Assembly (NCBI RefSeq): GCF_003704095.1
Contig: NW_020845410.1
Span: forward strand, 992,001 to 1,056,000
Origin: Pocillopora damicornis
Taxonomy: Eukaryota
Reading direction: 5' to 3'
DNA length: 64,000 bases
The notes under the pieces were generated by a model. It was given only the letters and a program-made list of their open reading frames with translations. It searched no databases and was not told the origin of the DNA. The position numbers and the translations under genes are program-made. Shown here in pieces: positions 4,105 to 36,200 of this stretch (its first letter is position 1; every line of letters begins with the position of its first letter).

Positions 4105-7100
4105 ATGGAAGACAAAACCGGCTCAAAACAAGAAGACAAAAAAGAATACTGTGGGGGAAATGGTTATTGTCTGATCGATGAGAGAACTCTAAATTTACTT
4201 TTATATGGTTCCCGCGAAGTCAGAGTTATAGACGTGCAGAAACTAAAACGGAAGGTTGAAGATGAACAAGGTACGAAAACAGCTTGTTAACATCACGGTA
4301 AAACCAATTATTTATCAAGTGCGCCTAAAAAAATGGCTAAGAACAATATCACTGATATTTTTGATACAGGAGGGAATTTGACTCAGCTCTTAAAACTACC
4401 ATAAAGCAATACAAGCCCGTTTCTACTTCCAAATAAAACCGCACCATTTACCAAATGTTTCGAATCATACGTAGACCCTCAAGCATTCATAAAAATATTC
4501 AGGATAGCATTGATAAAGTTGTTATTCTCTTTTGTTGACATTGAATTAATTTAATTGTTCCAAAAATTTCCGCTTTCACTGTTGTGTTTACGAGGTTTTT
4601 ATGTCCGCCCTGAGTAATTACCACAAAAAAATTTGCATGGGCAGAGTAATTTAAGCCGATATATACCCTTGTGTGTATTGTTCACTTGCACTTTCCTTTA
4701 TCTTGAAGCAATACTTTTCGGAGGGAGTGGAAACATTTGATACTCTGCAAATCCTATGCAAAAATTTTATCGACTAGAAATCACGTGAAAAGGAAAACGT
4801 CTAGTTTTCTGTCAATCTTGAGGTTTCCTAACGATGAATGTGTCTTTGTATTTAACAATTATTACATAATTTTATTCATTGGTATCCGAGCCACAAATTA
4901 ATTGTTCATTTTCCAGACCTTTTTTTAAACTACAACGGTTGTCAATATCCACAGAGTGCATTTAAGTCAGAAAAGCTCAGGTTCCGGTGAAAGGTTTTAG
5001 AAAAGGGCTTCTTTTGAAACGCAAGTAAAATACAGATCGGAAATGATCTTTCACGTTGCGGTTTTGGTCAGTTGGATGTTGTCATGTAGAGTCTGTTTAT
5101 TCTGTAAGTAAGGCTTTGATTAAGCACGTAACAGATCCACACTTGATATGACAAAATTCTTAGCGTTATTCATAGCACCATTTCTGTATTCTTGTCCTTG
5201 TCGATAAGCTCTGATCTTGATTCACCTTGCGGGGTGAATCATTCGAAGTATAGAGGCTCTAGTATTCAGGGTCATGCCTAGCTCCCTCCAATCACTCTAC
5301 GTGATCTCGCACTGCTGTATTTTTCATGGCATCTGACGGGCACTTGACTATGACATAGATGAAAGTTTCGGAGCACTCAGCCTCAGGCTAAATGTACCTT
5401 TGTTGCAAGCTACCTTATGAGGAACAGATACTTAACAGTACAACTGCTCATTCAAAATAGTCCTCCCTTTCAAGTATTCAATCGATTTTTCACAGGAGGT
5501 TCGTCTTCCAAAAAACAGAACAATACCGATGACCATGAGAAGCCTCGGCTCACAAACGCCATTAGATCATTCCCGGATGAAGTGCATCTCTGTAGATCGA
5601 GTATTCCTGGTGCTGGTTATGGAGTGTGCGCGAAAGAGCACATTCCGCTGGGCACATGGATAGGTCCGTATGAAGGAAGCCGCCTGCCCGCCCGAAATTT
5701 TCCTTCAAATTATGAAACAGGATATCTATGGGAGGTGAGATTTGAAAAAATAGTTTAGTGGGTTGTTATATGGGCTTCAGTCTTAAAGTAATTCCTCTTG
5801 AGATATTTTTATATCTTTCTCCTTTTCGGAGTTGCTACACTCATTTGTCTGTAAATAGATCTTGACATGCTTGAGTCTAAATATAACTTTAAAATAATTT
5901 AGAAAACAATTATGAAAAGGTGAAATATTCTAAAGACACATGTCTTCTTATGAGCTTCTGATATTGTATTAAGGTGTCTTCTTATGGATATATTCTGTAT
6001 CAAAAAGAAAGTGACCGAAAATGTGCGTTTATTTTGAGTATACGCATCTGTGAAGAAAATAAATACACTGACTCCATACCAAAAATCTAAAAGATTGAGT
6101 CCTTCATAGAGAGATATCTAACTTCGAAAAATTGATATTAAAATATTGGGAGAAAAATGGTTTAGTTTTATTTTAGGACTTGGAAATAAATCACAGTGCG
6201 GTAATCCAGTAAGTTGCAGGGGAGGGGGAGGGTTGGGAGTTGAACTTGGAAGCACCAGATGGCAAGTGAAACACTTTAACTTCTCGGTCACGTTGCCTCC
6301 CGTCCTCTTGCTTCGTTTTACTTGCCCAACCTGAAGAAGAAGTGAAATGATGAATATTTAAATTCTTGCTTCATAGATCTACAAAGATGGCCGCCTAAGT
6401 CACTACATTGACGGACGCGATGAAGACAACTCCAGCTGGATGCGATTCATTCAATGCGCACGTCATGTAAAGGAGCAGAATCTATACGCTTTTCAATACT
6501 GTGGCAACATTTTTTACCGGGCGTTTAAGGAGGTCCCCCCTGGTACAGAATTACTGGTTTGGTACGATGAAAAATATCCACAATTTCTTGGAATTCCTCT
6601 TGGTATACAGGACTATGAATTCTTCAGAGAATCTGGTAAGGCGGTGTTGATTTTTCAATTCACCTTAAAAAAAATTTTTTTTGATCTTCAATAACGGGTT
6701 GAAAGAGAACTGGTTAATGTTTCAGTTGTGAATGATTTGCAAAGTCTTGTTTGCTAGTAAGTCGAACTAAAAAACTAAAGCGAAAAGATGTAGGCAGTGT
6801 CACAAACGGAGAATTACTATTCACTGTTTCCACTATGCTGTGATCAAATTTTTTAACCACCAGGATTTGTATACAATATTAATACGAAAAAATACAAAAA
6901 GACAACAAAATTGCACGAGCCCGTTGGGCGAGTGCAATTTGTGGTCTTCGAAAAGTTTATAAAACCTTATTACATCAAATTGCACGAGAAATCATGTCAT
7001 TACTTGTTAATAATTTACATGAAAAACGCATCACAGTAAGTCAAGACTGACGAAATTTGGCAGTGCGTGTGCTATTTGTAATTTGCACTCGTGTTACATG

Positions 7101-8771
7101 AAAAATACATTCGTTTTCAGCCACTCAAACGCGCGTAATTTTTTCACGTATATTATTAAGTGTGTAGATCGAAGGCGCTGAGCATAACTTTTATTTGTTT
7201 TATCTGTTTTGAGTGACAAAGTGTCCTGAACTTTATTTTAATGACCGTATGAAAGATGCTAAGAGTTTATGAATCCTCCGAACCGAACCCCATAACTTAC
7301 TCTCTCCATGGCTTGTAAATTAAGACCGCTCGACTGAAATTTCACATTTAGCTTTCCTTTTTTATTCACAGTGTCATCTTCCAATACCCAAAGCTCTCCA
7401 GCCTGCAGTTCCGCCAGTTTGTTTGTTGACTCAGTGACACGGTATCCAAAAACCCACGGTTTTCAAGAATCACATGATAATCCTAATACGGGTAGTTTTA
7501 GATTCCCTTCACCACGTGAGCCACCTCCACGCTTCGTACGCCCCTCAAGCAGTGCGGGTAATGTTTTCCCGCGAGACAAGCTTGGCACTTCTGGAATTAG
7601 AGGTGGTCCTAGTTTCGCTGCAGGCTCAGTTGAAAGTAAAATGATTGAGACAGAATTAACCGCAACGACAACAGTTGATGGACAATTTTTCAGGAACTTT
7701 TCGCAAATACCTGCGCCCAGTGGTAACAATTTTTATTCGCCGCAAATAAAGAACAAGGACTCGCAAGAAAAAGTTGTGAAAACTGAAAATTCAACCCGAG
7801 GGTATATGTCTGATAAACATTGGGAAAGGCAAAGAGATGAGGATCCCTTGTCTAATAACGAAAGAAGACTTCCAGCAAAAATAAACGCTCTGCGTGAAAT
7901 GCCGCCATTACAATTCTTCGATAGTGAGTACTAAATTTATTCACTTAAAAAAAAAAGTTTCCACACAGGGTCGATTTAATAAAATTAGTGTTACTTTTGA
8001 AAGCCCTTTGCTGAAGCAGGTGACCCGTTATTTGCAGACCTACGTGTTTCACAGAAATTCTAACTTGCTTTCGACGCATAGAAAAAATATGTTTTCCATA
8101 AAACGAGTGCTTTTTCCAAAAGCCATATTTTAAAGCGTGTTAGGCCAGAACGTAACTTCCCATGAGTTAATGTATTGGCATGCCTCTTGTTAATTTAATA
8201 CTTAAGATAGAAACGCCCAACTGTGACTTTTCCAGATGATCAAAAACATTCTCCTCGCACGAATGAAGTTCAAGCTCTCAAGCGAAATGGAGATGGAGTG
8301 AAGAGTGTAATGCCAGCGCTTCGTCCTGCTATGCCTCCGCTTCTCCACACACCGCAATATCATGAACACTTAGGAACAAACATATCAGGAATTTCTCTGT
8401 CTCCGGATGAATTTGGTATGTGGAGGTGCCGGCAGTGCTTAAAGACTTTCACTCAGCGGGTTCTTCTTCAAATGCATGAGTGTTCCCAGACCCCTGATAA
8501 ACCGTATCAGTGCGGCCAGTGTACGCTTTCATATGGGACGCCGTCAGAACTCAGAAGTCACGTGGACACGCATACCAATGAGAAGTTGTTTAAGTGCGGG
8601 TTCTGTTCGCGCTCTTTCTCAGGGGCTACCACCTTAAACAACCACATACGCACCCACACCGGTGAGAAGCCATTCAATTGTGAGAAATGCCACAAGACAT
8701 TTTCACAAGCTAGTCATTTAGCGAGACATCAGCGAGTCCCTGGGGACTGTGTTCCCTGGCAGATGGGATAG
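4105..8771 (+). CDS. PRDM6: PRDM6-like PR/SET-domain zinc finger protein (paralog A), ~583 aa, 5 coding exons
   Basis: Exons 4105-4270, 5496-5734, 6377-6635, 7372-7923, 8236-8771, all GT-AG and phase-compatible (1752 nt). PR motifs [34 protein letters not shown]. The four C-terminal fingers ([21 protein letters not shown]...[20 protein letters not shown]...HQRVPGDC) closely match the PRDM6 finger array. Confidence 0.88.
6870..7160 (+). repeat. Interspersed repeat, with an inverted copy at ~38608-38920
   Basis: aaagacaacaaaattgcacgagcccgttgggcgagtgcaatttgtggtc is the reverse complement (with mismatches) of gaccaccaattgcacttgccctaccggcttgtgcaattttgttgtcttt at about 38817-38866. Confidence 0.7.
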
Positions 8772-10214
8772 ATCAAAAGTCAGCTTAGCTGCTGCAAATT
8801 GATAAACAGACTCAGCTAAAAAGCTTTCTTGCCACCCAAATCAGATCATACGACTACTTTTTTGGGAGGTAAAAACTGATAGATTTGTAACACGGAATTG
8901 AAAGAAATGATGTGTATGCAAACAGAGAAAGTGTAACTTCCCAAATGAATAATCAAACGATCTGATCTTAGCGGAAACAAAGATGGGAACACGAGAGCCA
9001 AACCCGCATCTGTTTGTAAGGATTTGGCCCGATCATTCCAGTCAATGCTCAAGCGATCGAGAATTTAATGAAATCAAGATCAGACAATCACTGGCCCGCA
9101 CGATCCGCGCGTTCGGATAGAACTAAGTTCGTGTTTGAGCCTGATTCCCACTTGATCGCCTTAATCGTCCCAGTCGCCCCAAAACCTTGCGCAAACGAGA
9201 CGTTCCAGATTGTCACGTGACAATCAGCCCTTAACTTACACACAGAGTCGTTCTAATGTTTCTCAACAAAAAATTTTAGTTAATGAAAAGCGTGCACTTG
9301 GAAATGGTAGGGTTTATTTTCACACCGAGTCAGTTTAAGGTCCATCTCTGGTTTTTTCACTGCACTAATACAACTTAGTCAAGTTTTCCTATAATGTCTC
9401 TCAAATGTCATCCCTTATCCAGTAACACTCATCCACTCCGTTTCTTGAAATATCTAATTTTTTGGCTGGGAATTACTCAAGAAGATACTCAACGGTAGAA
9501 GCATTTATCATTAGGGATATTTTGTATTCAAATTGGAAAGAAAAGAGTAACAAAAATGAGCTTTCTGTAGAATCTTGTTTGTACATTTTCGATCCGTTTA
9601 ACCTGAAGGGTTACTTTCCACCGTCTATTGGAGTTGATGACCCCGTTTGAATGTGCAATATGATAATTAATTTCTCCTTGCAGTGGATACCGTCATCCAC
9701 GACTTCCTCTAACAACTGCAAATTGGATGGACGAGGGTACTCTGGAAATACGTACCAACGTAGTAACTGAATATACTAAACGAAAAGCGTTTTATCTGCT
9801 TTGCAGAAAAATAGAACATTTACAAGTTAAGAATTGTTTTTTCTTTTTTACATGTCACAGGTTTCTGTGCGCCATCAATGTTATTTTGTACAGTGGAAGA
9901 TTAACTATATACAAAGTTTATGTTCTAGCGCATATCGTCTACCCCTCAAGTGTTAACTACGTGTTTCTCAGTAACGACGACAAGGCAGTGCTCACCAAAA
10001 AAATTAAAAAATGCTTGATTCAGGGCTGGATTAAAGTAATACTAAATTTCGTTTTTTAAGTATCCAACTATAAGGTCAGTCTAGATTTAATAATTCAAGA
10101 CAATGTCTAACAGGTTGGATCCTCTTTCTCGACTTCGATAAATAGATTGAAGGAAATCAACTGATGCGCAAGCGTGTAAAACTTTTTAGTCCGGCCATGT
10201 GACGTGGAATGTTT

Positions 10215-13099
10215 TCATTTCTCTTTTGCTAGAATCGAGAATGGATCAGGCGCATCGGTAGCACTGTTTATCACAATGGCTCTTCGCTGAGAGTCTGGGC
10301 CTTGTTGTCCATAATGATACGTCTGTGAATGGTGACGTTTCTTTCGCGTATGACTAGATTGAGGACCGTCTGCAGTCACGAGATAATTAGCATGGCATTG
10401 CGCATATTCAGGGGGAAGTGAAACGACCGCTGACCAAGAATTTTGAATCACTGGTGATTTATGGGGTGATATTTGTGGGGTGTTTTTCCAGCCAGAAAAT
10501 TCCGTGGGTGGTTTGAGCTGGACCGATGAACCAAACTGTGCTGAAGAACCTGTGTGAAATACGTTAAGTCGCAATTAGAGCCATTCACTATTGAGCGCCG
10601 AGATTGCTTTGATTTTACTTAGCTTTGCTCTGTGATTGGACCAGATAAGTCGCGCCATCCTTCCAACCAATTAGATGCAAAAACAAAAACAATTGCAACT
10701 TGGTCACTGGAATTTTCCCGCGCTTTAAGCAGTTTTCTTTTTTTCACTTTGAGTTTACATTGGCTAATGATGATGTAAACCTTTCTTCTGATAGGTCTTT
10801 GCGATTGCTGTACTTTTTCGCTTTTCTACACTTAATTAAAACTCCTCTAGTATCCTTTTACATTGGATTGGTTGAGAGAATGACGAATTGTTTTCGAAAA
10901 AATCAATCAGCGATGAATAGAACAAAGTTTGGAAAATTGTAAGGCACTTTGTACACTTCACTGTAATTTACCTTAAAGGTTTTCTGATTAGTAATACGTA
11001 CTTGAGCCATAAACCTCTAAACTGATATCGGTGATGTTCAGCGGTATACCCATGTACTGTGGATATGTATCTTCGTACCACACCAGTAGTTCTGATCCCG
11101 CAGGAATGTCAGCAAATGCTCTGTAATAAATCTCTTTGTTGTATTGAAAGGCGTAAAGGTTCTGTTCCTCTTTGTGACGAGCACATCTTATAAAACGCAT
11201 CCAACTGGACGTTGTTTCGTCTCTACCGTCCACATATTGAAGCAGTTTACCATTTTCGTATATCTAAAAAAAGATTGTCAGATTAGGGATTTTAGTCTAA
11301 TTATTTGTTGCTTCCAGATCGTCTACCAATGCGTCTACTAGATTTTATCTTGACAATATTTATACAATATCGAGCAGACAAGTGACGGGAATAAAGAAAA
11401 ATATCAATTAGGGGGTTATCAGTTGATCCAATATCGAATTCTTCGAACTTGCACAATAAGAATTGTATGACAGAATAAAGGAGAATTACTAATGACATCT
11501 TTGAAGTGAAAGGACACTTCAATGGTACAACATGACAAGGAGACTGAGGTGCTTTGAGCGTCTCTCAATGGTTCAGATTTATCGCAGACCTCAAAACCCA
11601 TCTAAAATTAGCCACTGATATTATAATGCAGTTTCACAACAGAAAAAATATTTTACATTTAGTTTGAACTGCATTTTCTATGATTGGCTTGAAAAAACTT
11701 GTCCGCCAGCTGCTAAAATCAATCACAGAATCGTAAATTGGTCAGTCGCGTGCCCTTTCCCGCACCTTTAAGCACCGACTTTTGTAATTAAATCAAGTTG
11801 TCAATCCTAAATGTTGATTGCCAATTTGATTTTAAGCATTGATTTGGTGTTACGATGGCAAATCAATTATTTAGCCTATTGGAGTAAACGTAAGGTATTA
11901 AGTAGGAGTAAAAACCTCTTTACCTCCCACATGTATGAGGTATCTGTGGCGGCCGTGAATTGATTAGGTTTAACAATATTGCCTTGATATGGACCCATCC
12001 AAGTTCCTTCTGGAATAACTTGTCTTGTGCGGATTCCCAATTGAGAACCAGTGGTTGATGGACAAAGATCGAGTTCATCCGGACAAGAGGATTTTGCAAA
12101 CGTCAGTTTTTCGCCATTTTTCTTTTTTGTTGTCATTTTAGAAGATGACACTGAACCTAAATAAAATAAAGTTAGAAATTATTTGTGATAAGCAGAACAT
12201 ATAAATGAGTTCTGAAAGAAAAATCAAGGTGTGCACATGTAGAGTACGAAAGATGTTAGATTTTGAGCTTGATCAACAAGCAAAGAAAGTTGTTATTCCT
12301 TTCGTCAAGAGCGTGCAACAGAACAATTTTTAAGCACCCCGAGAAGAATCCATCCTTATATCGTGACCTTCATAGAGAGCTCAAATGCTTTCTGTGTCAC
12401 GCTCTCGAGACGAAACGGAGAACATCTTCCCTTGAAAGTCAGTTTGTTTTTCTCTAGAATGTAAGATGATATGCAACTCTAAAGTACGTTTGGATTAAGA
12501 GCAGCCTGATTGAACTCCTGAACTAAAGTGGCGTTAAGTTTGTTGCAAACCTCAGAGGAAACAAAACGTACATAATACTTGGTCCCAGTCTCACAGACCG
12601 CGACGATCGGTAAGAAACGATGCTAATTTTGAGCTCAGTTTACAAATAAGCAAAGATGATTTAAAACATACATATCAAATTGAGCTAGGGGAAGAATCAA
12701 ACATCTGAGTTTCTTTTAAAGAATTAAACACTTTAGTTATCAATATCGGCTCCCTCCATTGATAATCTGCAGTTATATCGATCATATTGTCCGGGTTTTA
12801 AGGAAAATACTGCTATACGTGACTTCAAGGTAAGATAAGACTTGCTGTTACTAGGTAACAGAAATACTAATAGTGCATCCTGAGTTATCAGTGACCAGTT
12901 TGAAGAATGCTTTACCTTTTCGCCTCGGTGCACTTGTCACCTTTCCTACAGCTGTTTGGCTGGTTGATTCTTCATTACGTTGATACAAACATTTGTATAA
13001 ATTTTCATAAGTGAACGAAAATGGCGCGCAACCCGAGGAAACTGCTGGCTTGACATCATGATAAGGAAACTGCGGAAAACAGGGGCTTGTGTTCGCCAT
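10215..13099 (-). CDS. PRDM6-like PR/SET-domain protein lacking zinc fingers (paralog B), ~337 aa, 4 coding exons
   Basis: Exons 13099-12916, 12156-11924, 11263-11002, 10549-10215 (1014 nt, phases 1/0/1 as in the paralogs). PR motifs GTWMGPYQG, YMWEI, SWMRFIRCAR..EQNL, ELLVWY. The last exon is S/P/Q/H-rich and ends at TGA with no C2H2 motif. Confidence 0.8.
10575..10850. repeat. Interspersed repeat (tagagc...gctcta family), with copies at ~35118-35386 and ~11627-11860
   Basis: Shared core gctctgtgattgg.ccaga...cgc.ccatcc...aaccaat.agat...ttttcccgcgctttaagc. Confidence 0.65.
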
Positions 13100-16000
13100 T
13101 GCGAACGCTGTAAATACTGTTCTAAACTAAAAAATAAATTTAAAAAAATGTCAGATCAATACTAACGTCATCATCCCAAAAGGCACCAAACTCTGATTTT
13201 CATTAAACGTCTTATAACACCTTTTCTCGATATGGAGAGTTTTTCGCGAAGTAACTTCTGCTCGCCGAAAGAAAAAACCTATGACTTTCGCAAGGCAGCT
13301 GAACACTTCCGAGCTGGCAACTTTATCCACTCTATTTCAAGAGCCTAATGTAAAGTTCCTTTGCTAATGGATTATAAACGACCCTGCCGGGCTAGATGAT
13401 ACGTGCCAGTTGCCGTATCTCTAATACATATTCATGTTTTTCGAGTTCTGACTCCCTGATTGAATTGTCTCGGGGGTATGAGCCGAGCGTGGAAAGAGAA
13501 AGGTGCAGATTCCATTGTCTGCGTCGGAGTAAGTTTAGTCGACAGTCGTTATGTTGTAAACGACAGAAATCTTGCCATCATTCACAAGTGTAACACAGTT
13601 TAGAACATTACTGCTTATATTGTTGCAAACTGAGTAGGAAATTGTGTCGAGGTGTTTAGATACGTATTTTTTCAGTTAGTCTTAACGGCCTCTAGTGGTT
13701 ATTTAATATTCTTGTCTATTTAGGTTAAACGTGTTAAAAAAAAATTGAAGCAAGCCTTGAATAATTTGTTTACAAGAAACGATGGCGTTAAAATTGCTTG
13801 CTAGCACATTTCTTGGACGGACGTGCTTGCTCTGGAGCCAAGGGCACCGTGTATGGCTGAAATCACGTTAGATTCTCCAATATCGTACATAGATGATCAG
13901 ATTAGATGTCGATTTAAAGGAGATATTGTTCAAGACCAAAATTTTCACTTAGAACCATTGCGTGTTTACAAGAAAGAATACTATAACATAGGTGATCTCC
14001 TGATGAACAATGAATAAAAACTGTTCAGTTATACAGAAAATACTATCGTTACAACATGGTATGTTTGTGTCAAATATGTTAAGCAAACATCCCTCATCGA
14101 ACTGAATGTACTTCGTAGCTGGTGAACACTTTGAAGCAATATTACTAAATAGTTTAACAATTCAGTATTATCCTCATTTGAAACGTGTATTTTCATGAAT
14201 GATATTTTCATGCAGTGTCTAGTTACCTACCGTCGTATTCTGTGTGTTGTAAAAGTAGTTCCAGCAGTTTTTCGGGGTTGTAGACTTTCACTGGCGTGAT
14301 TAAGAAGTTGTTTATATGTTTTTAAGGTCAAAGTCGATTGGCTTCGCGTCGTTTCACCACAAAACAAATCTACATCAGTCACACATCGTGAATTCGTTGT
14401 TTTAACTGCCAAGTATTTGTCAAATTGTAGTCCATGCATTGCAAATTAACAATGTGTGAAGAGCTACGTTATGCTTCACAGGAAGCTCACGCTATCAGTT
14501 GCCATGGTAAAATGCATAAGTTTCAACATGAAAACTCCTAACTTTTTAAGGGAACTTAAATATCAGCTACAAAATTTTTGCCAGAGTAAACTTACGATTT
14601 TTGGCGTTTTTTTCCAGCAGATTCGCAAGGTTGGTTCCGGCAAGACGAAACGAAAACAATAGCAAAATTATAAATGACGTATTTAGTCTTGCCCAGAAGG
14701 GTTGGAACAGACGGGCGGAAGTCAATGACAGTTTAACACAATACACATCAATGTCCCATGGCTACCTCAGCTACTTCAATAAAACGTGCATTATTTCCCC
14801 CGGTTTTTTTTCCCACGCAATTACTGAATTCCGCCAAAAACACGTTTCGTCAGAAACTGATTGCGTTTTTCAAAAAACTGAATAAAACCGATGAGCCTAG
14901 TTCTTGCGTGTGAATGGGGAAAACCAAATAAAAAAAAGGTTAATGTAAACTCATTTGCCACAGTCCTGATACATGCTGTTAAAAATTCACTCATCTTGTG
15001 GTTTGTCAAAAATGCAGAATATTTGAAAAACCCAAAATACACAAATTGAATTAGAGAGAGTTTTGCTACACTCCTTGCAATTTGATTCGTAAGTTTGATG
15101 ACAAGAAGCAGGCTTCACCTCTTCTGAAATAACAGCTAACAAACGATAAAAACAAAATGGTTGTGTGAAATTGTCAAAATTGTTCTAAAATTGTCCATTA
15201 TCGTATAAAAATCACCTTATTGTTGTGTAGATGGAAAATTTCAGTTGACAGCCTGTTGGCTATACAGTGTTCAAAGAATTCCCTTTAGCAAACCGGTTCA
15301 GGCTGCGCAACGACGAAAAAATATATTCGTCGAATTTGATACGTATAAAAAAAACTGAAAGGTGATTTCAAAACGAATCCCGCATTGAAAAACAAAAAAA
15401 CAAAAAAAAAATACGAAAAAACAGAATGTATTAAAATTCATGATGTCTTACAGGCACAAATTATACTTAGCTATTCGAAACTATTGTAAAATATTGACAC
15501 AACCTTTACTGAAAAATACTTTTATGACTCTATCTTGTATCATAAATGCAAAATTACATAATAAATAAATGCAACTCAGGGTTTTTTTTGTTTAATTCCA
15601 CGCGTGTCATAAACTGTATTTTTTGAAACCGCTACGAAGTTTGCCTTGCGAACCGCGGCCAGGTGAATCGTATGAATTAGCTTACATGTTGAAGGCACAA
15701 TGTAAACGACTGTGAGTTTTTCAAAACATATTTGACCTTCCTTCTTCGTTGTTGAGATTCTCTGTCACTCATTTACATGTAACAAACACGAATCTGGGTA
15801 AATACATTTTTACAATTAAATCCAAAAAATTTTTGTTTGTTAGTCTGAAGTTAATTTCTATGTAAGAAAACAATGCTACATAACTCAGCGTAAGTGTTAC
15901 TATAAGTAGTGCTATTGCGTGTTTAGTGCTATTGCCTAATTCTTACTTACCGAAATATTTCTTGTGGTTTATATCCATGTAAAGCGTATTCTGTATTCTG

Positions 16001-23639: not shown

Positions 23640-26600
23640 ATGGCGCGAAATGGGGTGGCGTTCACTGCTCATTTTCCCGCCAGTCAGGCATCTCTGCAAA
23701 GCACTGCGCCGCACAGTTCCAAGAATTTTGCATTTACTTACGACGACTTATACAACTGTTTGTATCGCCACAATGAGCTACAACTAATCGACATCGAAGC
23801 ATTCAAAGCACAAAGAAAATCAAGTCAAACAGACGCGGAAAAACAAAAGGAAACGACTAGTAAGTTAACAAAACAAACCATTTTAATCTTTACAACATTG
23901 CGTGCCAAATTATAAATGTCCTATAGTACTTAATAACGATATTACCTCGAATTCAATCTTGTATTCAGCAAATTTGTCTTGCATTAATCTTATTGCTGCT
24001 GTCAATTTGTGATCTTAAGGCTTTTTGCAAGTTGATCCCTCTATGCATTTTTTTTGTCTCATAAAAACAAACTGTGGAGAAACAGCATAAAAATGAACAT
24101 CGATAACTTGCGCTCGAGAAATGGGTGCGAGTCATCTTAACCGCAAAAGCAATACAATTGTTGTTTTTTCGAAACCCAATTTTCCGGTTTAAACCGAAAG
24201 GGAAGTGAATTGTGAGTATTTGCTGGTTGCAGGGGAAGACCCCCTGAAGTAGAATGTTATGATTACACAAGTACCGCATTAAACACGAGAAACTAGAATA
24301 TTCGAAGGAAAAACATCGGTTTTCTTATAAAATAGACTTTGTTTGTTGTGGTGATAAAAATAGTACCTGTTAATCTTTATTCTACCGCCAGACATACCAT
24401 GGTGAAAGTGGTTTTTGTCCATTGTCTACAACAGTGTTGCTATAACAGGAATTGTAATTACTTCCTTCTTTAAGGAGAGGATCTTCTTAAAGGCAAAAAT
24501 CTAAAATTGAACAGATTTTCTTTCATAGTTTCCAAATTCTGGTCATGTTCACTTAGCCCGCCCAACTGGACGACTAAATCACCCTTGAAGCTTGCTTGAA
24601 CCGATATACCACTTAAGGTCACGACATTTCCGGCAAGCGGAAACTTCGGCAAATTTTGTTTTATCATCATTGCATTGAAAATCCCCACGATGCAAGATTT
24701 GGTGGGCGGAGCTACCATGGCGCGCGAGCTCACACAGATGACAGAACGCTTTGTTGAAATTTTTCACATTTTTCAATTACGTGTCTGGAGATAACTCTTC
24801 GTATCCAATGTCGGAAGAAGCTTTGCCAATGTCGGTACCTTTGAAGCTTTATTAAAATCTTTCGTTAACAGTGTTTTCTTTATTTTAAAGTGAATAGTTC
24901 TGGCAATCACCCCGATTTTGAACTAACCTTTACAATCACTATTGGAAAAGAAAGATTGCGAAAAAAAATGAAGAGAGGGGGGAGGGGGGGAAGGTACTCC
25001 CAAGCAATATTTCGACCTCACGCTGGGGGCTCTGTTTTGGAACTGAACTGTCACAATGTTCCGTCCGTTTTGTGTCTTCCTTTCTTTTGCTTTGTTAAAG
25101 TAATTCCCTGACAATGTGTCTCTTTTAGTTCCCTCAACAAAGCTTTTTTTTCTGAAAAACTTACTGAACAATCTTATGTTAAACGGTTCTGAACTGGGTC
25201 AAAAGCTTTCTTCGTATAAGTCATGACCATGATTCACAGAAGAGCCTTTTCCTGAGCACTACTGTGTATTCTAAGAGAATGCTGAAGCCACGAATGTGAC
25301 TGCCATTACGTGATTATGGCCTAAAAATGATTAGTCTTGTATTTGTATCGTGGCTGTTGTTTATAATGGCTAACTTACCTCTTGCACAAATATTTTTCTT
25401 CTGAATTTTGAGCCATTTTCGTTTTGTGAGAATCTTTTACCAAACGGAAAACGTGGTTGAATCCATTTTTTAAGGGATCAAAGGTCAATTTTTTACTGGC
25501 ACCATCTGATGTTGTGCTCTAATGATTATAACATTTTAATCAGGAAAAAAGCGTTTCCCCTCCTGATAAAACTGAACACGTATAATTCAGATTGTAAACA
25601 TATGTTAGCCAAAGGTAATTTGCGTGGAATGTGGCAAAAACTTTCCTGTCTTACTTCCTAACTTAATTCACTCCTCTGGACAGTCTCTTTTTGTGTTGTG
25701 ATTTTGGATTTGCTCCAAAAGTTTCGTTTGTCTGCCAAAACAAACCACGTCCGGGAGATAACTGAGGGTGGGAGAGGGGGTGAGTGGGGGACTCCATACC
25801 CAGGGGGCTGGGAGTCTGTGCTACCAACACATACGCTGCTTGTACAGTAATGAAAAATGCCTTTGTTGCGGTGGAGAAATAACATGACAATTTTTCCTTT
25901 TTGTATTCGTAGACTGTGATGCATGTCGTTCAAAGCAAGACGCATGTCCAGTGCACAAAGTTCCAAATTCTGGAAGGAAACTTCTTATTCCAGGACAGAA
26001 ACAACCGGTCAAATTTAGTTACGCCATAGCGTCCTTTCCAGAGGAAGTGCAGCTCTGTGTGTCAAGTATTCCTGGGGCGGGTTGTGGAGTCTGCGCAAAG
26101 CAACATATTCCTGTGGGCACGTGGATTGGACCATATGAGGGAAAACTTGTTAAATATGATGACGTTAAACCCAATACAGACACCTCTTACATGTGGGAGG
26201 TAAGTCCCTTATTTTGAAACCAAAAAGGAAGTCAAAATCGAAGTATCTGAGGGAGAATGTAGTAGGAAAATGGACACTGTATTTAATTTACTAAAATCTT
26301 GACTGAAATGTAATTTCTTTCGACCCTTAGGACTGCTTCACCTGTGTGTGTGTGTGTGTGTGTGTGTTTTTTTTTTCTTGCAGTTAGACATGTGTTGTCT
26401 AGGTTACCATTAGTTACAGAGTCATAACTACTTTATTTTTGCACCGATCATTTGCAGATTTACCAAGATGGCAAGCTCTCCCATTACTTGGATGCCAGCG
26501 ACGAAAACACCTCGAGTTGGATGCGATTCATCCGATGCGCACGATATAGGGAAGAGCAGAACCTCTTCTCGTTTCAGTACTGCGGAAACATCTACTACCG

Positions 26601-27873
26601 GGCTTTCAGAGAGATATCCGTAGGGACGGAACTTCTCGTATGGTACGATGAAAAATATCCTCAGGATATGGGAATACCACTGGAAGTTCAAGATATGGCA
26701 CTTGTGGACCCCAACGGTATGTCATAACAATGACGAAGCAACTTAGTTTAGGTAATTGAAAAAATATTGCTTTTAGGCTCTCAGTGTTTAAGAAACGAGC
26801 CATTAGTATGAAGTGCTAGGATCAGTGGTCGGCTTAGTGCTATTCTTTTAAAATGAAAGATTTTCATATTTTCTAGGGGAAGTTAAAACTGTAAATGGCA
26901 AACAAAAATCATTCTTTACCTCGAGGAAGGTTTTCTTTATTTAATTATTAGCTATTATTTGTCACAGTTGGGTTTTATCATTAAAAGCTCTTTTCGATAG
27001 TGCCCTCGAATGGGGCAGGAGTCCGATCCGCTTAAACGTAACTTAGCATTCAATCATTTAATCAGATTGCTTATCCACCTTTTGCTTATTAAATGCTATT
27101 CACGAACCTCGCTGTCCTTCTCTCTAGGTACCAGACTCCTTCAAGAGGTCTTAGCAGCACAAGGTCAAACGCAACCTTCAGATCGACCGATCAACACCAG
27201 GCAATTTTCTATGCCTGCAGTTTCAAGTCAGCCAACGGTTGTTTCAATTACTCCTACGAAGACATCTTCCCGAAAATCACCCCTCCCTGTTCCTCGTGAC
27301 AACATGAAAGAGAGACCCTCGCCTACGTCTCCAAATGACACTCGTATTTCGTGGCACCACAAAGTTCCAAATCCTACTATTTCTCACAGCGCCATTCCCA
27401 TAGGGAACAATTTCGTCCAGGCTGAGCGAACTCGAAAAGTGGAGCCGGTCGCCTTAAAAGAGGAAAGGGTTGTTATTGAGGATTGTGATGACGACAGAAG
27501 GTTCAATTTAGCTGAAGGATCAGAGATGAGCCTTATGAAATGCGGTCAATGTAGTCAGTCATTCGCGCAGAAGAACATGCTCCAGGTTCATGTATGCCCG
27601 CGTATGCCAAGGAGACCTTACACATGTAGCTACTGCTCTGAATCTTTCTCCTTACCTAACGAACTGCGCACGCATGTTGTCACTCACGCTAATGATAAGC
27701 CATTCAAGTGCGGCTATTGCTCGCGCACATTTGCTGGAGCGACAACGCTAAACAACCATATCAGGACACACACGGGAGAGCGACCATTTCTTTGTGATAA
27801 ATGTGGCAAATCTTTCACACAGGCATCCCAGCTAAGCAAACATCAACGAATTCCTCACGAATGCAAGTACTAG
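23640..27873 (+). CDS. PRDM6: PRDM6-like PR/SET-domain zinc finger protein (paralog C), ~503 aa, 4 coding exons, with PR zinc knuckle
   Basis: Exons 23640-23859, 25913-26199, 26458-26716, 27128-27873 (1512 nt). Knuckle CDACRSKQDACPVH, PR domain, and four fingers including [26 protein letters not shown]...FTQASQLSKHQRIPHECK. Confidence 0.9.
26343..26367 (+). repeat. (TG)n microsatellite in a PRDM6-C intron
   Basis: Directly visible. Confidence 0.9.
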
Positions 27874-30236: not shown

Positions 30237-33200
30237 TTATTGACTGGAGACATGTCGCTTAAATTTCCAAACTGTGTTCCTGCCAATGTCTGCTACGTAC
30301 ACAGCACCATCTTGACTTGAAGTGACATCATGAGGTTGTGAGAAACTCTAAAATTACAAGTCGATTACGCAATAAGTACAAAACGTTTAGTTGAGTGAAA
30401 AAAAAAAGTCTACCCAGCCGGAACTTCTTCCGGTTTCCTGAGCACTTAAAGATTAAAGTGAATACAAGTCCATCGCAAGTTATCCCCCGGCAATAAGACC
30501 GACCCAATCTTCACACAGTTGAAGTTATATTTTAGCGGAGCTCGCAAATCGTGCAAAGCGTAACACCATAGCTAAGAAAATTTGGTAAACCATCAAGCCC
30601 AGAAAATAACCGTCCAATCGGACATACACAATTCTACTTAGAATATGCGTTTGCAGCTGTACTGCAGGCACATCCACACTGCCGCGTTACTCTTGTTCGG
30701 CAAACAACTAGGCACAATGCGTGCGCAAGATTTTAAGAAATTTCCAATCACAAAAGTAGCACGCGTAGGGGTTTACTCGGCTGAAATTTAATGTTCATGA
30801 AACTCCTCCTATCCTTCGCACTACATACTTACCAAGGCTGGTTCCCAGTGCTGTAATACACTGCCTTTGTTCAAAATGAACGTGAAGCCCTGGGCTTCAG
30901 AGAAAGAAGGGCCGTTGACCACATGTAACACACCACCTGGAAAAAATTTAAGATAGTTGTTTACATAGCTACATGTCTTAAGCAGTGTACATTAATTTAT
31001 TAATATCTTGTTAATAATTAATGGATGAAAGTAAATTCTATGTGCATACCTTGCTCAGGATGATAGTGTACGGCAAAAGCTCTTTCCCCAAATGCTTTGA
31101 TTTCGCGAACGAGATGACCGTTAACAGAGTCAAACTGTAGCACTCGGCTGTTTTCTCTGTCGGCTACAAACAACCGACGGTTCTTCTCGTCCAGGGACAA
31201 GCTGTGAGGGATCTCAAAATTACTTGGAACTGAAAGAAAGGAGACCAAGGATCACTGATGTTTCCCTTTTATCCCATGAAAGCACTTGCAAGATATGTTC
31301 TTCAAGATCAAGTCTTTGAACTAGGTAAAGGTGAAAGGGAATCGATCAGATTTGAAATAATTTACGACTATTCATAACACGAAACATTTCAAACGCTTAA
31401 ACACAAAGAGTGGACGTAAATGTAAAGAACTACCACTTGGACAATCGTTTAGAGGTCTTTAGATAAGAGTGTTGACCCACCAAGCCCTTGTAATTTTTCA
31501 TTCGTTATCATCAAAAGTACTTTCTTGCCATCAGGGGAAAACTTTATGACCCGATTATTACAGTATCTGAAATGTAAGAAAAAACACGGAATCAGGAGAT
31601 ATTATATAGGAAACTGAACGACACTCCAACAACAAAAGCAACGCCAAGAGCAAACAATTCGAAACACCACAAGAACGTCATAGTTTACCCGTCAGAAACA
31701 AAGATATTCCCCTCTGAGTCGACAGCGACGTCGGTTGGTTTACAGAAATGATTTTCATCATTCCCCGGGACAAACTGTGTTCCTAGTGTCAGTGAGGCTC
31801 GCTTTTTCTCTCCCGGAGGAAACTTAAATACCTGTCAAAATTAACAGACATTCTAGGAAACCCATATGGGAAAAATTGAAGCGAGAATTGAAGACATATT
31901 TACGTAAAACAGTTCCACGGCCAAGAGTTTATTACCAACCTGATGCATGGCTACATCTGTTAACCAAATGTTGCCCTTTTGATCGATGGTCAGCCCATGA
32001 GGCATAAAGAACCTGGATGGGGGAAAACGAGAAGTTTAAGAAATGGGTGTAGATAAGAAGAATGGGTGTGGGAGGAAGGCAGGACGATAGAGGCGGGAGG
32101 GGACAGAGCGGAAAAGAGGGGGAGGGAATGAGGAATTACGGGAAGGCACGGTAGGAGAGAGAGAGAGGGCACCAGAATACAACGAGGGTAAACGGCAAAC
32201 AGGAAGTAGGGAGCTAAGAATTAAAGGAGGAAATGAGAATTTTCGCAACTGGAAGGAGGAAGTGCAGGGAGTACGGAACTGAAGCGGGAGCATAAGCAGT
32301 TAAATGGGGAACGAGAAGGGAGGACTAGGTGGTACGGACTTGGAGAAAGAGTGGGAGGAAAAGTGTGCGTCCATAACATATAGACCACCAGCAAAGTAAG
32401 ACATTTACATTCGTTCTCCCCAGCTGTCAATAACTTCCCCTGTTTGTGGATCCAACTTCATCACAGTCGATTCTGGGATGGGATCACTTGTAGCGGAGAA
32501 GATATTGTGCTCATCGAACGAACTGCAACCAGAAAACACTTGTTAAAAAAGGTCTTTTAGTAGGATTTGAGGCACGGCTTGGAAAACAATGAAAAATGCG
32601 GCGAGTTATCTTTACGGCGCTTTCACCCCGTGCACCCTAACATCAGTATGCATATTCTCCATACTGTTCTCTGTACATTTCTTTCGATTTCTTAAGGGGC
32701 TGACAAGGAGAATTTGTTTTAACGATCGAGACCTTCTTTAGTGGGTGGTCATTTCCTTTATTCTCGTGATCTTAATGTTTGATTCCGGGATGATATTGTA
32801 AGGAGAAATTAGATACTATTCATTCCTAGGAGTTAAAGGGTAAAACCAGACGTGATGCAGACACTTACTCAGCTTGCCATTTTCTTGATGCTCGATGGAA
32901 TATGAGCACTTTTCCTTCCGAATCAATGTCGACGGCAGTAACTTGACCAAGTTTACTCGACCGTCTCATAACGTCAGCCAGCTTATTTCCTTGCCAACTC
33001 TGATCTTCTTCAAGTAGCAAAGGTGAACTCTCGTCATCGCAATTCGGTGCGCAGAATCCTGAAACAAGTCACAATCAGACATGGTTTGATGCTACTCTGG
33101 TTTACAGATTTAATGAATGTAACCGAAGAAGTTACAATTCACAGACCCACAGTGTTATACGATTATACGATTAGCCACAGTGTTATACGATTAACGTTAT

Positions 33201-36200
33201 AACCTTGAGCACCTTCATCGTTCAACACTAGCCGCGCGAAGCAAGATCTGGTGTCTCTCAAATATAGAAAAAATGGCAGAAATCACCAAAACCAATCCAC
33301 ACCCACCCCGGAAAGTTACAAAATACTATTTTTAAACATTCAGCATTAGATAGATAAGATTAAAATTATTGCTACCCGCTTCTCGAAAGACATACACTGA
33401 TAAGAAGAAAAAGTGAGATCACAAGATAATTTATAATCACCTAGTTTAAGGCACCCGTTACTACTCGCCATCTATGAAGAGGAGAGTTAAGCCCATCTTC
33501 ACCTCCTTAAACTAATTAACAACGCAGACATTATTCTCAGGTAGTTTAGATCTAGTTGATCTCTTTGATTTTATCTTCTCATCTTTCGGCCACCTTTGAC
33601 TTTACAATCAGAATTAAAGTAATTTAACCAAGGACCAACCGTGTGAAAAGGGATTAACGGAGGGGGAAGGGGAGGAATTGCACCAGGGAGGGGGGGGGAC
33701 TTGTCTCTGAGAGTACCAACACTTTCAGGTAGAGGATTGGGTAGAATGCAAATAGAAAAAATGACAATTCTTGAATCTGGAAATGTTGATTGTGACGTTA
33801 ACTGATACCTATTTCGCTAAATACATCATAGAAAACAAGGCAAGATGTGATAACAACATCATGATCACGAAAAAAAAACAAAAAAACCAAAAAAAACAAA
33901 AACAGAGATCTGCTGATCATGCTTTAAAAAATAACTTTATTCTTTATCGAGATGCAATTGAACTTCAAAAGAAGTTATAACAAGCCATTGGTGTCAAAAA
34001 GTTAAAACATAGTTTATTATTTTACTTTCACTGGGTTAAACATTTAAATAAATACACCGCGCTTAGTGTAGAAATATTTTGTCGGTTACTTTAACCGTAA
34101 AAATTATTGGCGTTTCTAATTAAATTCGTTGAACTCTTCTTATCTATTTTTTGGATGACATCTTTTATTAATATCTTCCATTGAAACATTTTTTCCAACC
34201 AGTTCTTTCATCAGATCGCATCTTTCAACGCTTATCACTTTCATCAAAGCTGGCCTGCGATTAAAAGAAACGAAACAAAAAAAAAATCAGCGCTTTGTTT
34301 AGCTCGACAACGAGAGGGATTTCGCGGTCAGAAAGATGAAAGTGATAGCAGCAGAGTCAAGAGCGCAGAAAAGATGAGATGAAACTGGAAAAAGAGGAAA
34401 GCGCCATCGAACCCTTCCGCATAGAACCCGAAACCACCCGTGTAAAACCTGAAAGATTCCGAGAAAACTCGAGATAAACTGTAACCTACAGGAAATTTCA
34501 CCCAGACGATTCTAAGCCTTTTGAAAATGACTTGAAATCGAAACCCGTTAACAACCACAAAATCCCGCATATGGCCAAACCCACTGCTAGAAGAGGCTTC
34601 ATGAAAAAAAGAAAAAAAAACCCGTATGTGACTGACTGATACTCCCAAGTTGAATTCAAGTGATCGTTTCCCATAAAACAATAGTTACAGTTTCATTGAA
34701 TGAACCACCTACTTTCGCCAAGGTTTCTTTTCATCTCCATTTTTGGTCCACTGCCTGGTAACGGGACATCAGAGTCTGACGGGAAGTCGAGCTGTCTCTC
34801 GTCAATAATCTGACACATGTCTTCGACACTGACACCTCCCAGGTCATTCAGTTTTGGGTCATACCAATACATCATGTAAAAATTACACATTTCGTCCTTC
34901 ATAGTTGCTCTGCAAAAAATGAGGCATAGCTAAAAAAAATTAAGCTGTAACTTAAGTGAGAGAAACACAACTATGGTTTTGGAATACAGCTTAATGCGGC
35001 TAAGTGCCAAACTTTTCAAGTGAAAATGGGTTGCATTTGAAAAAGAATGAAATATCATTTTCGTGTTAACGACATCTGCCCATAATTTCTCCCTTCAGAC
35101 AACTATTAATTTCCTTGTAGGGCAATTTTCAATCGAGTTGTGAAACAAATTAAGGATCACATTGGTTTTACTTTTGTAAGCTCTGTAATTGGTCCAGAGT
35201 ACTCGCACCATCCTCTTAACCAATCAGATTTAAAAACCAAAGCCAGTCGCACCTGCGTCACACGCGTTTTCCCGCGCTTTAAGCGGTCTGCTTACTTTTA
35301 CCTATAATTCTCATTTTCTCGTCGTGTTATTTTCCTTTCTTCTGATTGGCGTTTGGTTTTACGACACTCAATCGAAATGCGCTCTAAAGTAACAGAATTT
35401 GCTGTTCTGTCAAGATTATGTTTGAAATGTATGTCGACTCTCGTCACCAGTTTGTAGGATAATGTATTGATATGGTAATAAGTTACATGTTTATGACTTC
35501 TGATAGTAAAATTGTAAACATACCCGATATATGTTACATGGTCTCTCTGGGTTGAATTGTAAGTGCATCGGGCAGCCTGGCGATTGAGAGTATTAAATAT
35601 TGGATATCAGGGAAAATAAACTCGGCTTCTATTACAAGTTTCACGAGGAAAAAACCCTGAGGCATGGGTCACCTACGAGACGCACAGGACTAAAACAGAC
35701 ATTTGTGAAACTAGAAAGAAAGTGCGCAATGAAAGAGATGGAATGCAAGACAATTAATGGAGACACCACAATACGACAACGATGCTCGAAACCAAACTGG
35801 GAACACAACAGTTCAGGGAAGAAGAAAAAGGTCAAGTTTTTATTACCATAGAATCCCCACTTTTTATGTCCACATCTTTATCCACTGGGTAAAACGCCTG
35901 AAAAATAATCAAAAAAATATATTAGGGCCAGAATACTCTAGGAAATGCCAAGAAACTTTGCACTACATCCTGTCAGTTGTTTACATGAATTCAACGCCTA
36001 GCGTAAAAGAATAATAAAAGAACAAGAATAAAAATCATTTCAACGAAGTGCCTCAAATCAAAACTGAAAATGTGTCATGCAAGAAAAAGGGTTGTCGTAT
36101 CTATCAAGCTTTCATTTTTGGTTTTGGTTTAGTTGTTTTTGTGATGGTTGATGGTCACTAATCTCTGATTTGCAAAAAGGTGCTCAAATGTTACCCCACC

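Follow-up and report, generated by a model that had tools for sequence, protein, structure and literature searches.

Gene B of Pocillopora damicornis is a real, expressed and conserved gene, which is PRDM6 by descent and carries no zinc fingers. We propose, with a probability of roughly 45%, that its product is an adaptor that binds the ETO co-repressor and is tethered to its targets through a new C-terminal motif. The gene lies at 13099-10215 on the minus strand of the window, the stretch of 64,000 nucleotides that was analyzed, and its open frame of 337 aa encodes a PR domain and zero zinc fingers. The parts of the gene are as follows.

12916 to 13099, minus strand: coding exon 1 of B, with the ATG at 13099; its splice joint is present in four of four RNA runs
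11924 to 12156, minus strand: coding exon 2, in which the PR domain begins at 12088 and runs for its first half, without a zinc knuckle; RNA joints
11002 to 11263, minus strand: coding exon 3, with the other half of the PR domain, which ends at 11024 (Pfam PF21549, E 1e-29); RNA joints
10215 to 10549, minus strand: coding exon 4, a disordered, finger-less tail with the stop at 10215
15951 to 15980, minus strand: 3' end of a 5' untranslated exon of B, joined to the acceptor at 13126, with a GT donor at 15950
9300 to 10214, minus strand: approximate 3' UTR of B, directed toward the 3' end of A, with a putative end, AATAAA at 9318, and unspliced RNA contigs across it

The three coding introns are all of the GT..AG type and have phases 1, 0 and 1. 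CT..AC joints of introns 1 and 3 are present in four of four RNA runs and that of intron 2 in three of four; the splicing is read from RNA contigs only, and one of the four runs is merely guessed to be RNA. The intact four-exon frame reported in a preliminary description of this DNA is thus borne out by the 337-aa frame, the GT..AG introns and the RNA joints. Its statement that the intron phases equal those of both neighboring paralogs holds for paralog C (1, 0, 1), whereas paralog A has an extra fourth, phase-1 intron in its linker. No splice joint leads out of exon 4 in the RNA contigs of four runs from four studies, and unspliced contigs continue beyond the stop codon of B. Splicing on to finger exons, which the preliminary description named as the outcome that would speak against it, is not seen in the RNA contigs. 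On the upstream side of B the RNA contig view reaches 14000, and loose contig ends behind 13131 in two of the four runs match 15956-15976 exactly. The contigs show neither transcript ends nor strand; their depth is higher over B than over A, although depth cannot rank the genes.

One contig of run X7 joins approximately 10980 to 10551 (window 10971-11001, minus strand). A second B donor behind an in-frame stop at 10971-11001, which gives a PR-only form without the tail, is possible. The segment 14230-14440 on the minus strand is a possible alternative first exon, as it matches the N-terminal extension of a 395-aa form in the Stylophora cluster. Parts of the B introns (10604-10805 and 11340-11513) consist of dispersed repeats, which recur several times in the 154-kb region and have a high RNA contig depth.

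B is flanked by two paralogs with fingers.

4105 to 8771, plus strand: paralog A, tail-to-tail with B; its five coding exons encode 583 aa with four fingers
23640 to 27873, plus strand: paralog C, head-to-head with B; its four coding exons encode 503 aa with a zinc knuckle and four fingers

Ten close PR genes are located within 941-1020 kb of contig C2045, and seven of them lie upstream of the window. The resulting cluster of about 80 kb (G000:C2045:938000-1020000, which is window 1-27873 plus the upstream sequence) is composed of PRDM6-type genes in mixed orientation, and two further genes of the PRDM6 clade are on other contigs. A finger profile run over 154 kb found exactly nine arrays for the ten PR genes, in all cluster members except B, and no array near B on either strand. 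The arrays of the nine neighbors belong to the PRDM6 type that is seen in fish PRDM6. The profile confirms the earlier claim that no finger-coding frame lies on the minus strand before A, and the gap between B and A, given there as about 1.4 kb, is 1444 bases to the stop of A. A finger relic between A and C was sought and rejected, the best tblastn match having an E value of 0.003 and lacking zinc ligands. The loss of the fingers shows that B cannot read DNA as its siblings do. Direct finger-based DNA binding, which the preliminary description had denied to B, is contradicted both by the finger profile and by the lack of an RNA joint to finger exons.

Several members of the cluster show variations of their own. 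Paralog g4 (G000:C2045:956000-958800, minus strand) is a recent twin of g2 and retains only fingers 2 and 3 of the four. The last intron of A (7924-8235, plus strand) is found retained as well as spliced among the RNA contigs, and read-through to a stop at 7934 gives a finger-less form of 408 aa (P0076); PR-only forms of C (P0052 and P0053) are similar. The finger exons of two cluster neighbors are 98-99% identical to Pocillopora verrucosa proteins. Elsewhere in the window, an intronless RRM-cyclophilin frame of the PPIE type, about 300 aa long, is located at 56596-57540 on the minus strand and is possibly a retrocopy. Pieces of genes resembling a peptide-amidating enzyme (Cu2 monooxygenase C and NHL repeat), together with two similar signal-peptide exons, occur at 31018-34929, 43122-43481 and 52613-52897 on the minus strand.

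Finger-less orthologs of B were found in 14 named stony-coral species from six genera; named members of the ortholog clusters come from Stylophora, Oculina, Orbicella, four Porites, two Montipora and five Acropora species. Searching with exon 3 returns finger-less proteins of approximately 290-395 aa with 79-95% identity, which rank above the fingered paralogs, and fingers are present in 0 of 68 orthologs. In a tree of 84 rows, the bootstrap of which is not fully settled, B sequences form a clade of 12 rows (100/100) on a stem of 0.49, and all 12 are finger-less and bear the C-terminal motif. The clade divides into two halves of six rows each, which we take to be the robust and complex corals. 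Eight PR-domain positions are fixed in all 12 B rows and present in less than 10% of the 70 other rows.

Outside the stony corals, no B ortholog from an anemone, octocoral or hydrozoan was found among 71 profile matches or among the best 150 of 3022 representatives, where the three rows that reach the tail are all B-like. B is, as judged from these sequence searches, likely absent outside stony corals. The search for orthologs and synteny that had been recommended thus gave a positive answer for corals, with 14 species and the tail-to-tail arrangement with A in 4 of 15 metagenome loci, and none in anemones among the matches covered. In seven species, a B record and another PRDM6 record lie on contigs of equal length, and in Oculina their locus tags are four apart, which suggests that the linkage of B to other PRDM6 genes has been kept across corals. 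Several PRDM6 records also lie on contigs of equal length in each of Nematostella, Exaiptasia and Dendronephthya, and the PRDM6 cluster may therefore be older than stony corals.

In a quick tree of 39 PR domains, B falls into a 24-row clade with vertebrate PRDM6 (SH-aLRT 96) and outside the PRDM9-like clade. In the tree of 84 rows, no one paralog emerges as the sister of B. When the N-terminal motif is added to the PR domain, B is weakly grouped with C and g6, in a tree the support labels of which are unreliable after re-rooting. B likely originated by duplication within the older PRDM6 cluster. The duplication would have preceded the split of the two main stony-coral lineages, and the copy would then have changed rapidly, as indicated by the long stem and the eight fixed PR substitutions, before it became conserved. 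Public records name B as PRDM6, PRDM14-like or PRDM9-like, and because of this misnaming coral expression studies cannot currently distinguish it.

It is very improbable that B is a decaying copy or an assembly artefact which lost its fingers by misassembly or recent breakage. Of the 15 metagenome loci that were fetched, 14 are B-type, and the 10 that reach the last exon all end in the motif and a stop codon. A is tail-to-tail with B in the four loci mentioned above; locus L045 is without A across 3.1 kb downstream, and the rest are too short. One of the 15, L044 (1557-1853), joins the 5' half of B to exon 3 and the fingers of another paralog, as a misassembly or breakage might. However, it switches at the SSWMRFI stretch common to all paralogs, and the similar contigs L045 and L046 carry a normal B, so that L044 is most likely an assembly chimera, the alternative being a recombinant allele. 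At least three within-species differences are present in exon 4 among those listed (40 of 160 rows), and all are non-synonymous, as expected of a decaying gene, but they fall in the unconserved part of the tail. The read support of the window itself consists of RNA contigs only.

The selection on B points the same way. The pair L035/L036 has a dN/dS of 0.063 for the PR domain and 0.078 for the N-terminal motif; the values are 0.097 for the C-terminal motif (last 23 codons), 0.25 for the remaining tail and 0.62 for the linker. The dS between the window and its orthologs is near saturation (pS 0.6-0.7), and therefore only this pair gives a firm ratio; five near-saturated pairs have PR-domain values of 0.06-0.10. 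A dN/dS near 1, which the preliminary description had set against a functional gene, is far from the value of about 0.06 in the PR domain, and the orthologs together with the dN/dS values refute decay or artefact.

The surfaces that B retains are those of the interface between a PRDM protein and ETO. The N-terminal part of this interface is a short motif.

12983 to 13021, minus strand: pre-SET motif, aa 27-39, which resembles the ETO-binding pre-SET helix of PRDM14

The N-terminal motif of the preliminary description was thus found, at 13021, and its complete PR domain is verified by Pfam PF21549 and by a structure model of an ortholog. The ortholog profile aligns the motif to the first residues of 5ecj_A, the best PDB match (E 4e-34), although exon 1 alone gives only chance matches against the PDB. 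The ortholog model has a helix at 31-39. The pre-SET F-x-F and hydrophobic helix are present in 54 of 68 orthologs, and the other 14 are 5'-short records; in Porites the motif is weaker (9 of 16 identical). In most fingered siblings the helix is followed by a hydrophobic run, which B has lost. The zinc knuckle is found in 0 of 14 B-type N-segments and in 29 of 43 others, and A and g7 are also without it. The PR domain of the Stylophora ortholog model has a pLDDT above 90 for aa 81-200 and Foldseek matches to PR domains; an earlier fold from 11 sequences had reached a pLDDT of 37.

The SET-side contacts of PRDM14 with Mtgr1 are named in the available text of Nady 2015 (PMC4749557). The corresponding residues (S290, M292, E294, C319, Y339, Y355 and P366), mapped through the 5ecj profile alignment, are kept in 68 of 68 tail-bearing orthologs with a whole PR domain. 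The genome contains one ETO-type locus, which keeps the matching R and K, while the other TAFH match resembles TAF4 (both named by sequence resemblance). According to the available part of a review (PMC9986075), CBFA2T2 is an interaction partner of the PRDM6 PR domain. Since the two-part interface is kept and homologous to that of PRDM14-Mtgr1, B likely binds NHR1 of the single coral ETO/CBFA2T co-repressor, by analogy with that complex. The earlier proposal that B keeps its partner-binding surface agrees with the pre-SET alignment and the contact residues. The kept contacts nevertheless do not single out ETO, because they are common to most paralogs and overlap with the catalytic cleft.

The overlap with the catalytic cleft also bears on enzymatic activity. 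B could be a stand-alone lysine methyltransferase or bind a non-ETO partner of the PR domain, with the motif recruiting the substrate, but we consider this unlikely. The positions of the three catalytic tyrosines of PRDM9 (Y276, Y341 and Y357, counted along the 6nm4 alignment) are Tyr in 68 of 68 orthologs, and a review table gives PRDM6 an H4K20 activity. However, two of the three tyrosines double as ETO contacts, PRDM14 is inactive despite having them, and in this inactive protein the same cleft binds Mtgr1. Furthermore, the Asn of the VNCAR sequence in PRDM9, which has a role in cofactor binding, is missing from all 68 orthologs of B, where R, C or Q takes its place.

The main rival of the adaptor, possible but less likely, is that B is a decoy, which would bind ETO off DNA and damp all fingered PRDM6- and PRDM14-type proteins that share one ETO, with the motif setting its half-life or location. 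Retention of the interface alongside loss of the fingers and the zinc knuckle fits such a role, as does the position tail-to-tail with A in 4 of 15 loci. Eleven fingered or PRDM6-clade genes besides B face the one ETO locus (among these, L012 has no fingers visible within 1.5 kb), and so do four PR genes that belong to neither the PRDM6 nor the PRDM9-like clade. The self-contained repressor/antagonist module of B with A and C that had been suggested is too narrow, given the nine fingered neighbors, the two PRDM6-type genes elsewhere and the single ETO gene. On the other hand, a pure sponge could do without a 23-residue motif whose spacing is fixed, and without eight fixed PR substitutions specific to B, and A and C already yield finger-less read-through forms, which are perhaps unspliced RNA.

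The tail of B carries two elements.

10215 to 10286, minus strand: C-terminal motif, aa 315-337, RR[AT][IV]VI-x4-[DNG][AV]PDPF[CS][IV]L-x-[RK]-x-K-stop
10335 to 10346, minus strand: basic cluster RKKR, a possible nuclear signal; basic residues occupy a like place in ortholog tails and are loosely conserved

The C-terminal motif comprises 23 residues with fixed spacing. Ten positions are invariant in 13 distinct tails, four of them fixed by choice since the tails were picked by PDPF. In all five genera tested, the motif is better kept than the remaining tail (Fisher p 1.5e-3 to 6e-6). The view of the tail as merely low-complexity is refuted by this motif, the dN/dS of which is about 0.1, and the last 118 residues have 4.0 bits compared to 4.18 for the PR domain. 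Nothing resembling the motif was found in Pfam, the Atlas, the rest of the genome or 355 other fetched proteins, and the whole B protein hits only generic PR clusters in the Atlas. Derivation from the pre-finger segment of C was considered and rejected, as the best local match (E 0.26) is no better than that of other clades. CtBP, eh1, SIM, LIR, PxIxIT and PxVxL motifs, compared by eye, fit poorly.

In the Stylophora ortholog model, the tail is disordered, without fold-back, and the motif is about 95 residues from the PR domain; as modeled, this would be the usual anatomy of a docking motif. The purifying selection on the motif sequence points to a probable second partner. A second docking site is favored because the spacing of the motif is fixed, selection on it is as strong as on the PR domain, and it sits on a flexible tail; the adaptor is favored because the motif fits such a site. 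We hypothesize that the pre-SET helix and PR domain bind NHR1 of the single coral ETO/CBFA2T, whereas the terminal motif would dock on a second protein and replace the lost fingers as the targeting step. B would thereby carry ETO to another protein and not to DNA, with repression as the presumed output and the nucleus as the putative location. Against the adaptor, the conserved motif could instead serve a decoy as a degron or localization signal, and a box of this kind is present in Id proteins.

B might also reach DNA by pairing with a fingered paralog through its tail or PR surface, or act mainly through overlap of its 3' UTR with A, but this is quite unlikely. In data from two other corals (L037 and L039), as among the RNA contigs of the window, individual contigs cover both spliced B and antisense A; a contig across two genes does not, however, show that one transcript covers them both. 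Selection on the B protein cannot be accounted for by UTR overlap, and PRDM6 dimers are without support here.

The adaptor suggests a wider scenario, which we advance tentatively and consider possible rather than probable. When stony corals arose, one copy of PRDM6 may have swapped its zinc fingers for a docking peptide and become an adaptor that re-routes the sole ETO to a non-PRDM factor. This coral-specific regulator would lie in a cluster of ten PRDM6 genes that is undescribed and Hox-sized, and it may help to specify a coral-specific cell type. B would be a clean natural case of the change from transcription factor to cofactor, in which DNA binding was lost, the co-repressor surface stayed and a new motif became fixed in the two main lineages of stony corals. 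Through B one can test how PR domains function in the absence of fingers. One can also test whether PRDM and ETO, known as partners in vertebrate stem cells and medulloblastoma, were already tuning cnidarian cell fate.

The literature searched, largely outside subscription journals, contains no paper on gene B or its cluster. The available text of one coral paper lists PRDM6 among heat-responsive genes (PMC11639872), the available parts of PMC10415408, PMC7177584 and PMC12360431 contain nothing on B, and 'prdm' is absent from the main text of the Stylophora cell atlas (PMC8162421). Prdm6 is ancestral according to Vervoort 2016 (PMC4760075), the available text of which does not name a PRDM6 cluster.

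B shares with vertebrate PRDM6 (PRISM) the PR clade (SH-aLRT 96) and the pre-SET motif, and its nine neighbors have the PRDM6-type finger array. It differs in the absence of fingers and zinc knuckle, in its own terminal motif, and in being a separate gene and not an isoform; to our knowledge, vertebrates have a single PRDM6. The complex of PRDM14 with Mtgr1 (CBFA2T2; 5ECJ) has in common with B the aligned pre-SET start and the named contacts on both sides, but PRDM14 reaches DNA with its own fingers, whereas the PR domain of B is of the PRDM6 type and its binding is predicted from sequence. Id proteins and microProtein decoys likewise keep an interaction domain and lose DNA binding, although B has no sequence relation to Id. 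FOG/ZFPM proteins are PR-bearing cofactors tethered by a partner (FOG1), but FOG docks through zinc fingers, which B does not have.

The available part of a preprint (bioRxiv 10.64898/2026.09.07.749791) describes a PRDM9 paralog reduced to the SET domain, present in every stony coral of that study, which resembles B as a SET-only PRDM kept across stony corals. Its authors assign it to PRDM9, as far as that part shows, whereas B is outside the PRDM9-like clade. The locus L017 (G000:C1986:40234-40434) has a PRDM9-like PR exon and no fingers within 1.5 kb, and, from the available part of the preprint, it is a likelier match than B. Acropora B records carry the name 'PRDM9-like', and for this reason B and the paralog could conceivably overlap. 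Finger-less PRDMs are already known, namely PRDM11 and splice forms of PRDM6 and PRDM9, as given in the available text of PMC4009873. They share with B a PR domain without fingers, but belong to another subfamily or are splice forms, whereas B sits among nine fingered siblings, and the searches run found no B tail motif in them. What is new in gene B is the combination of a finger-less PRDM6 with a terminal motif of no known family.
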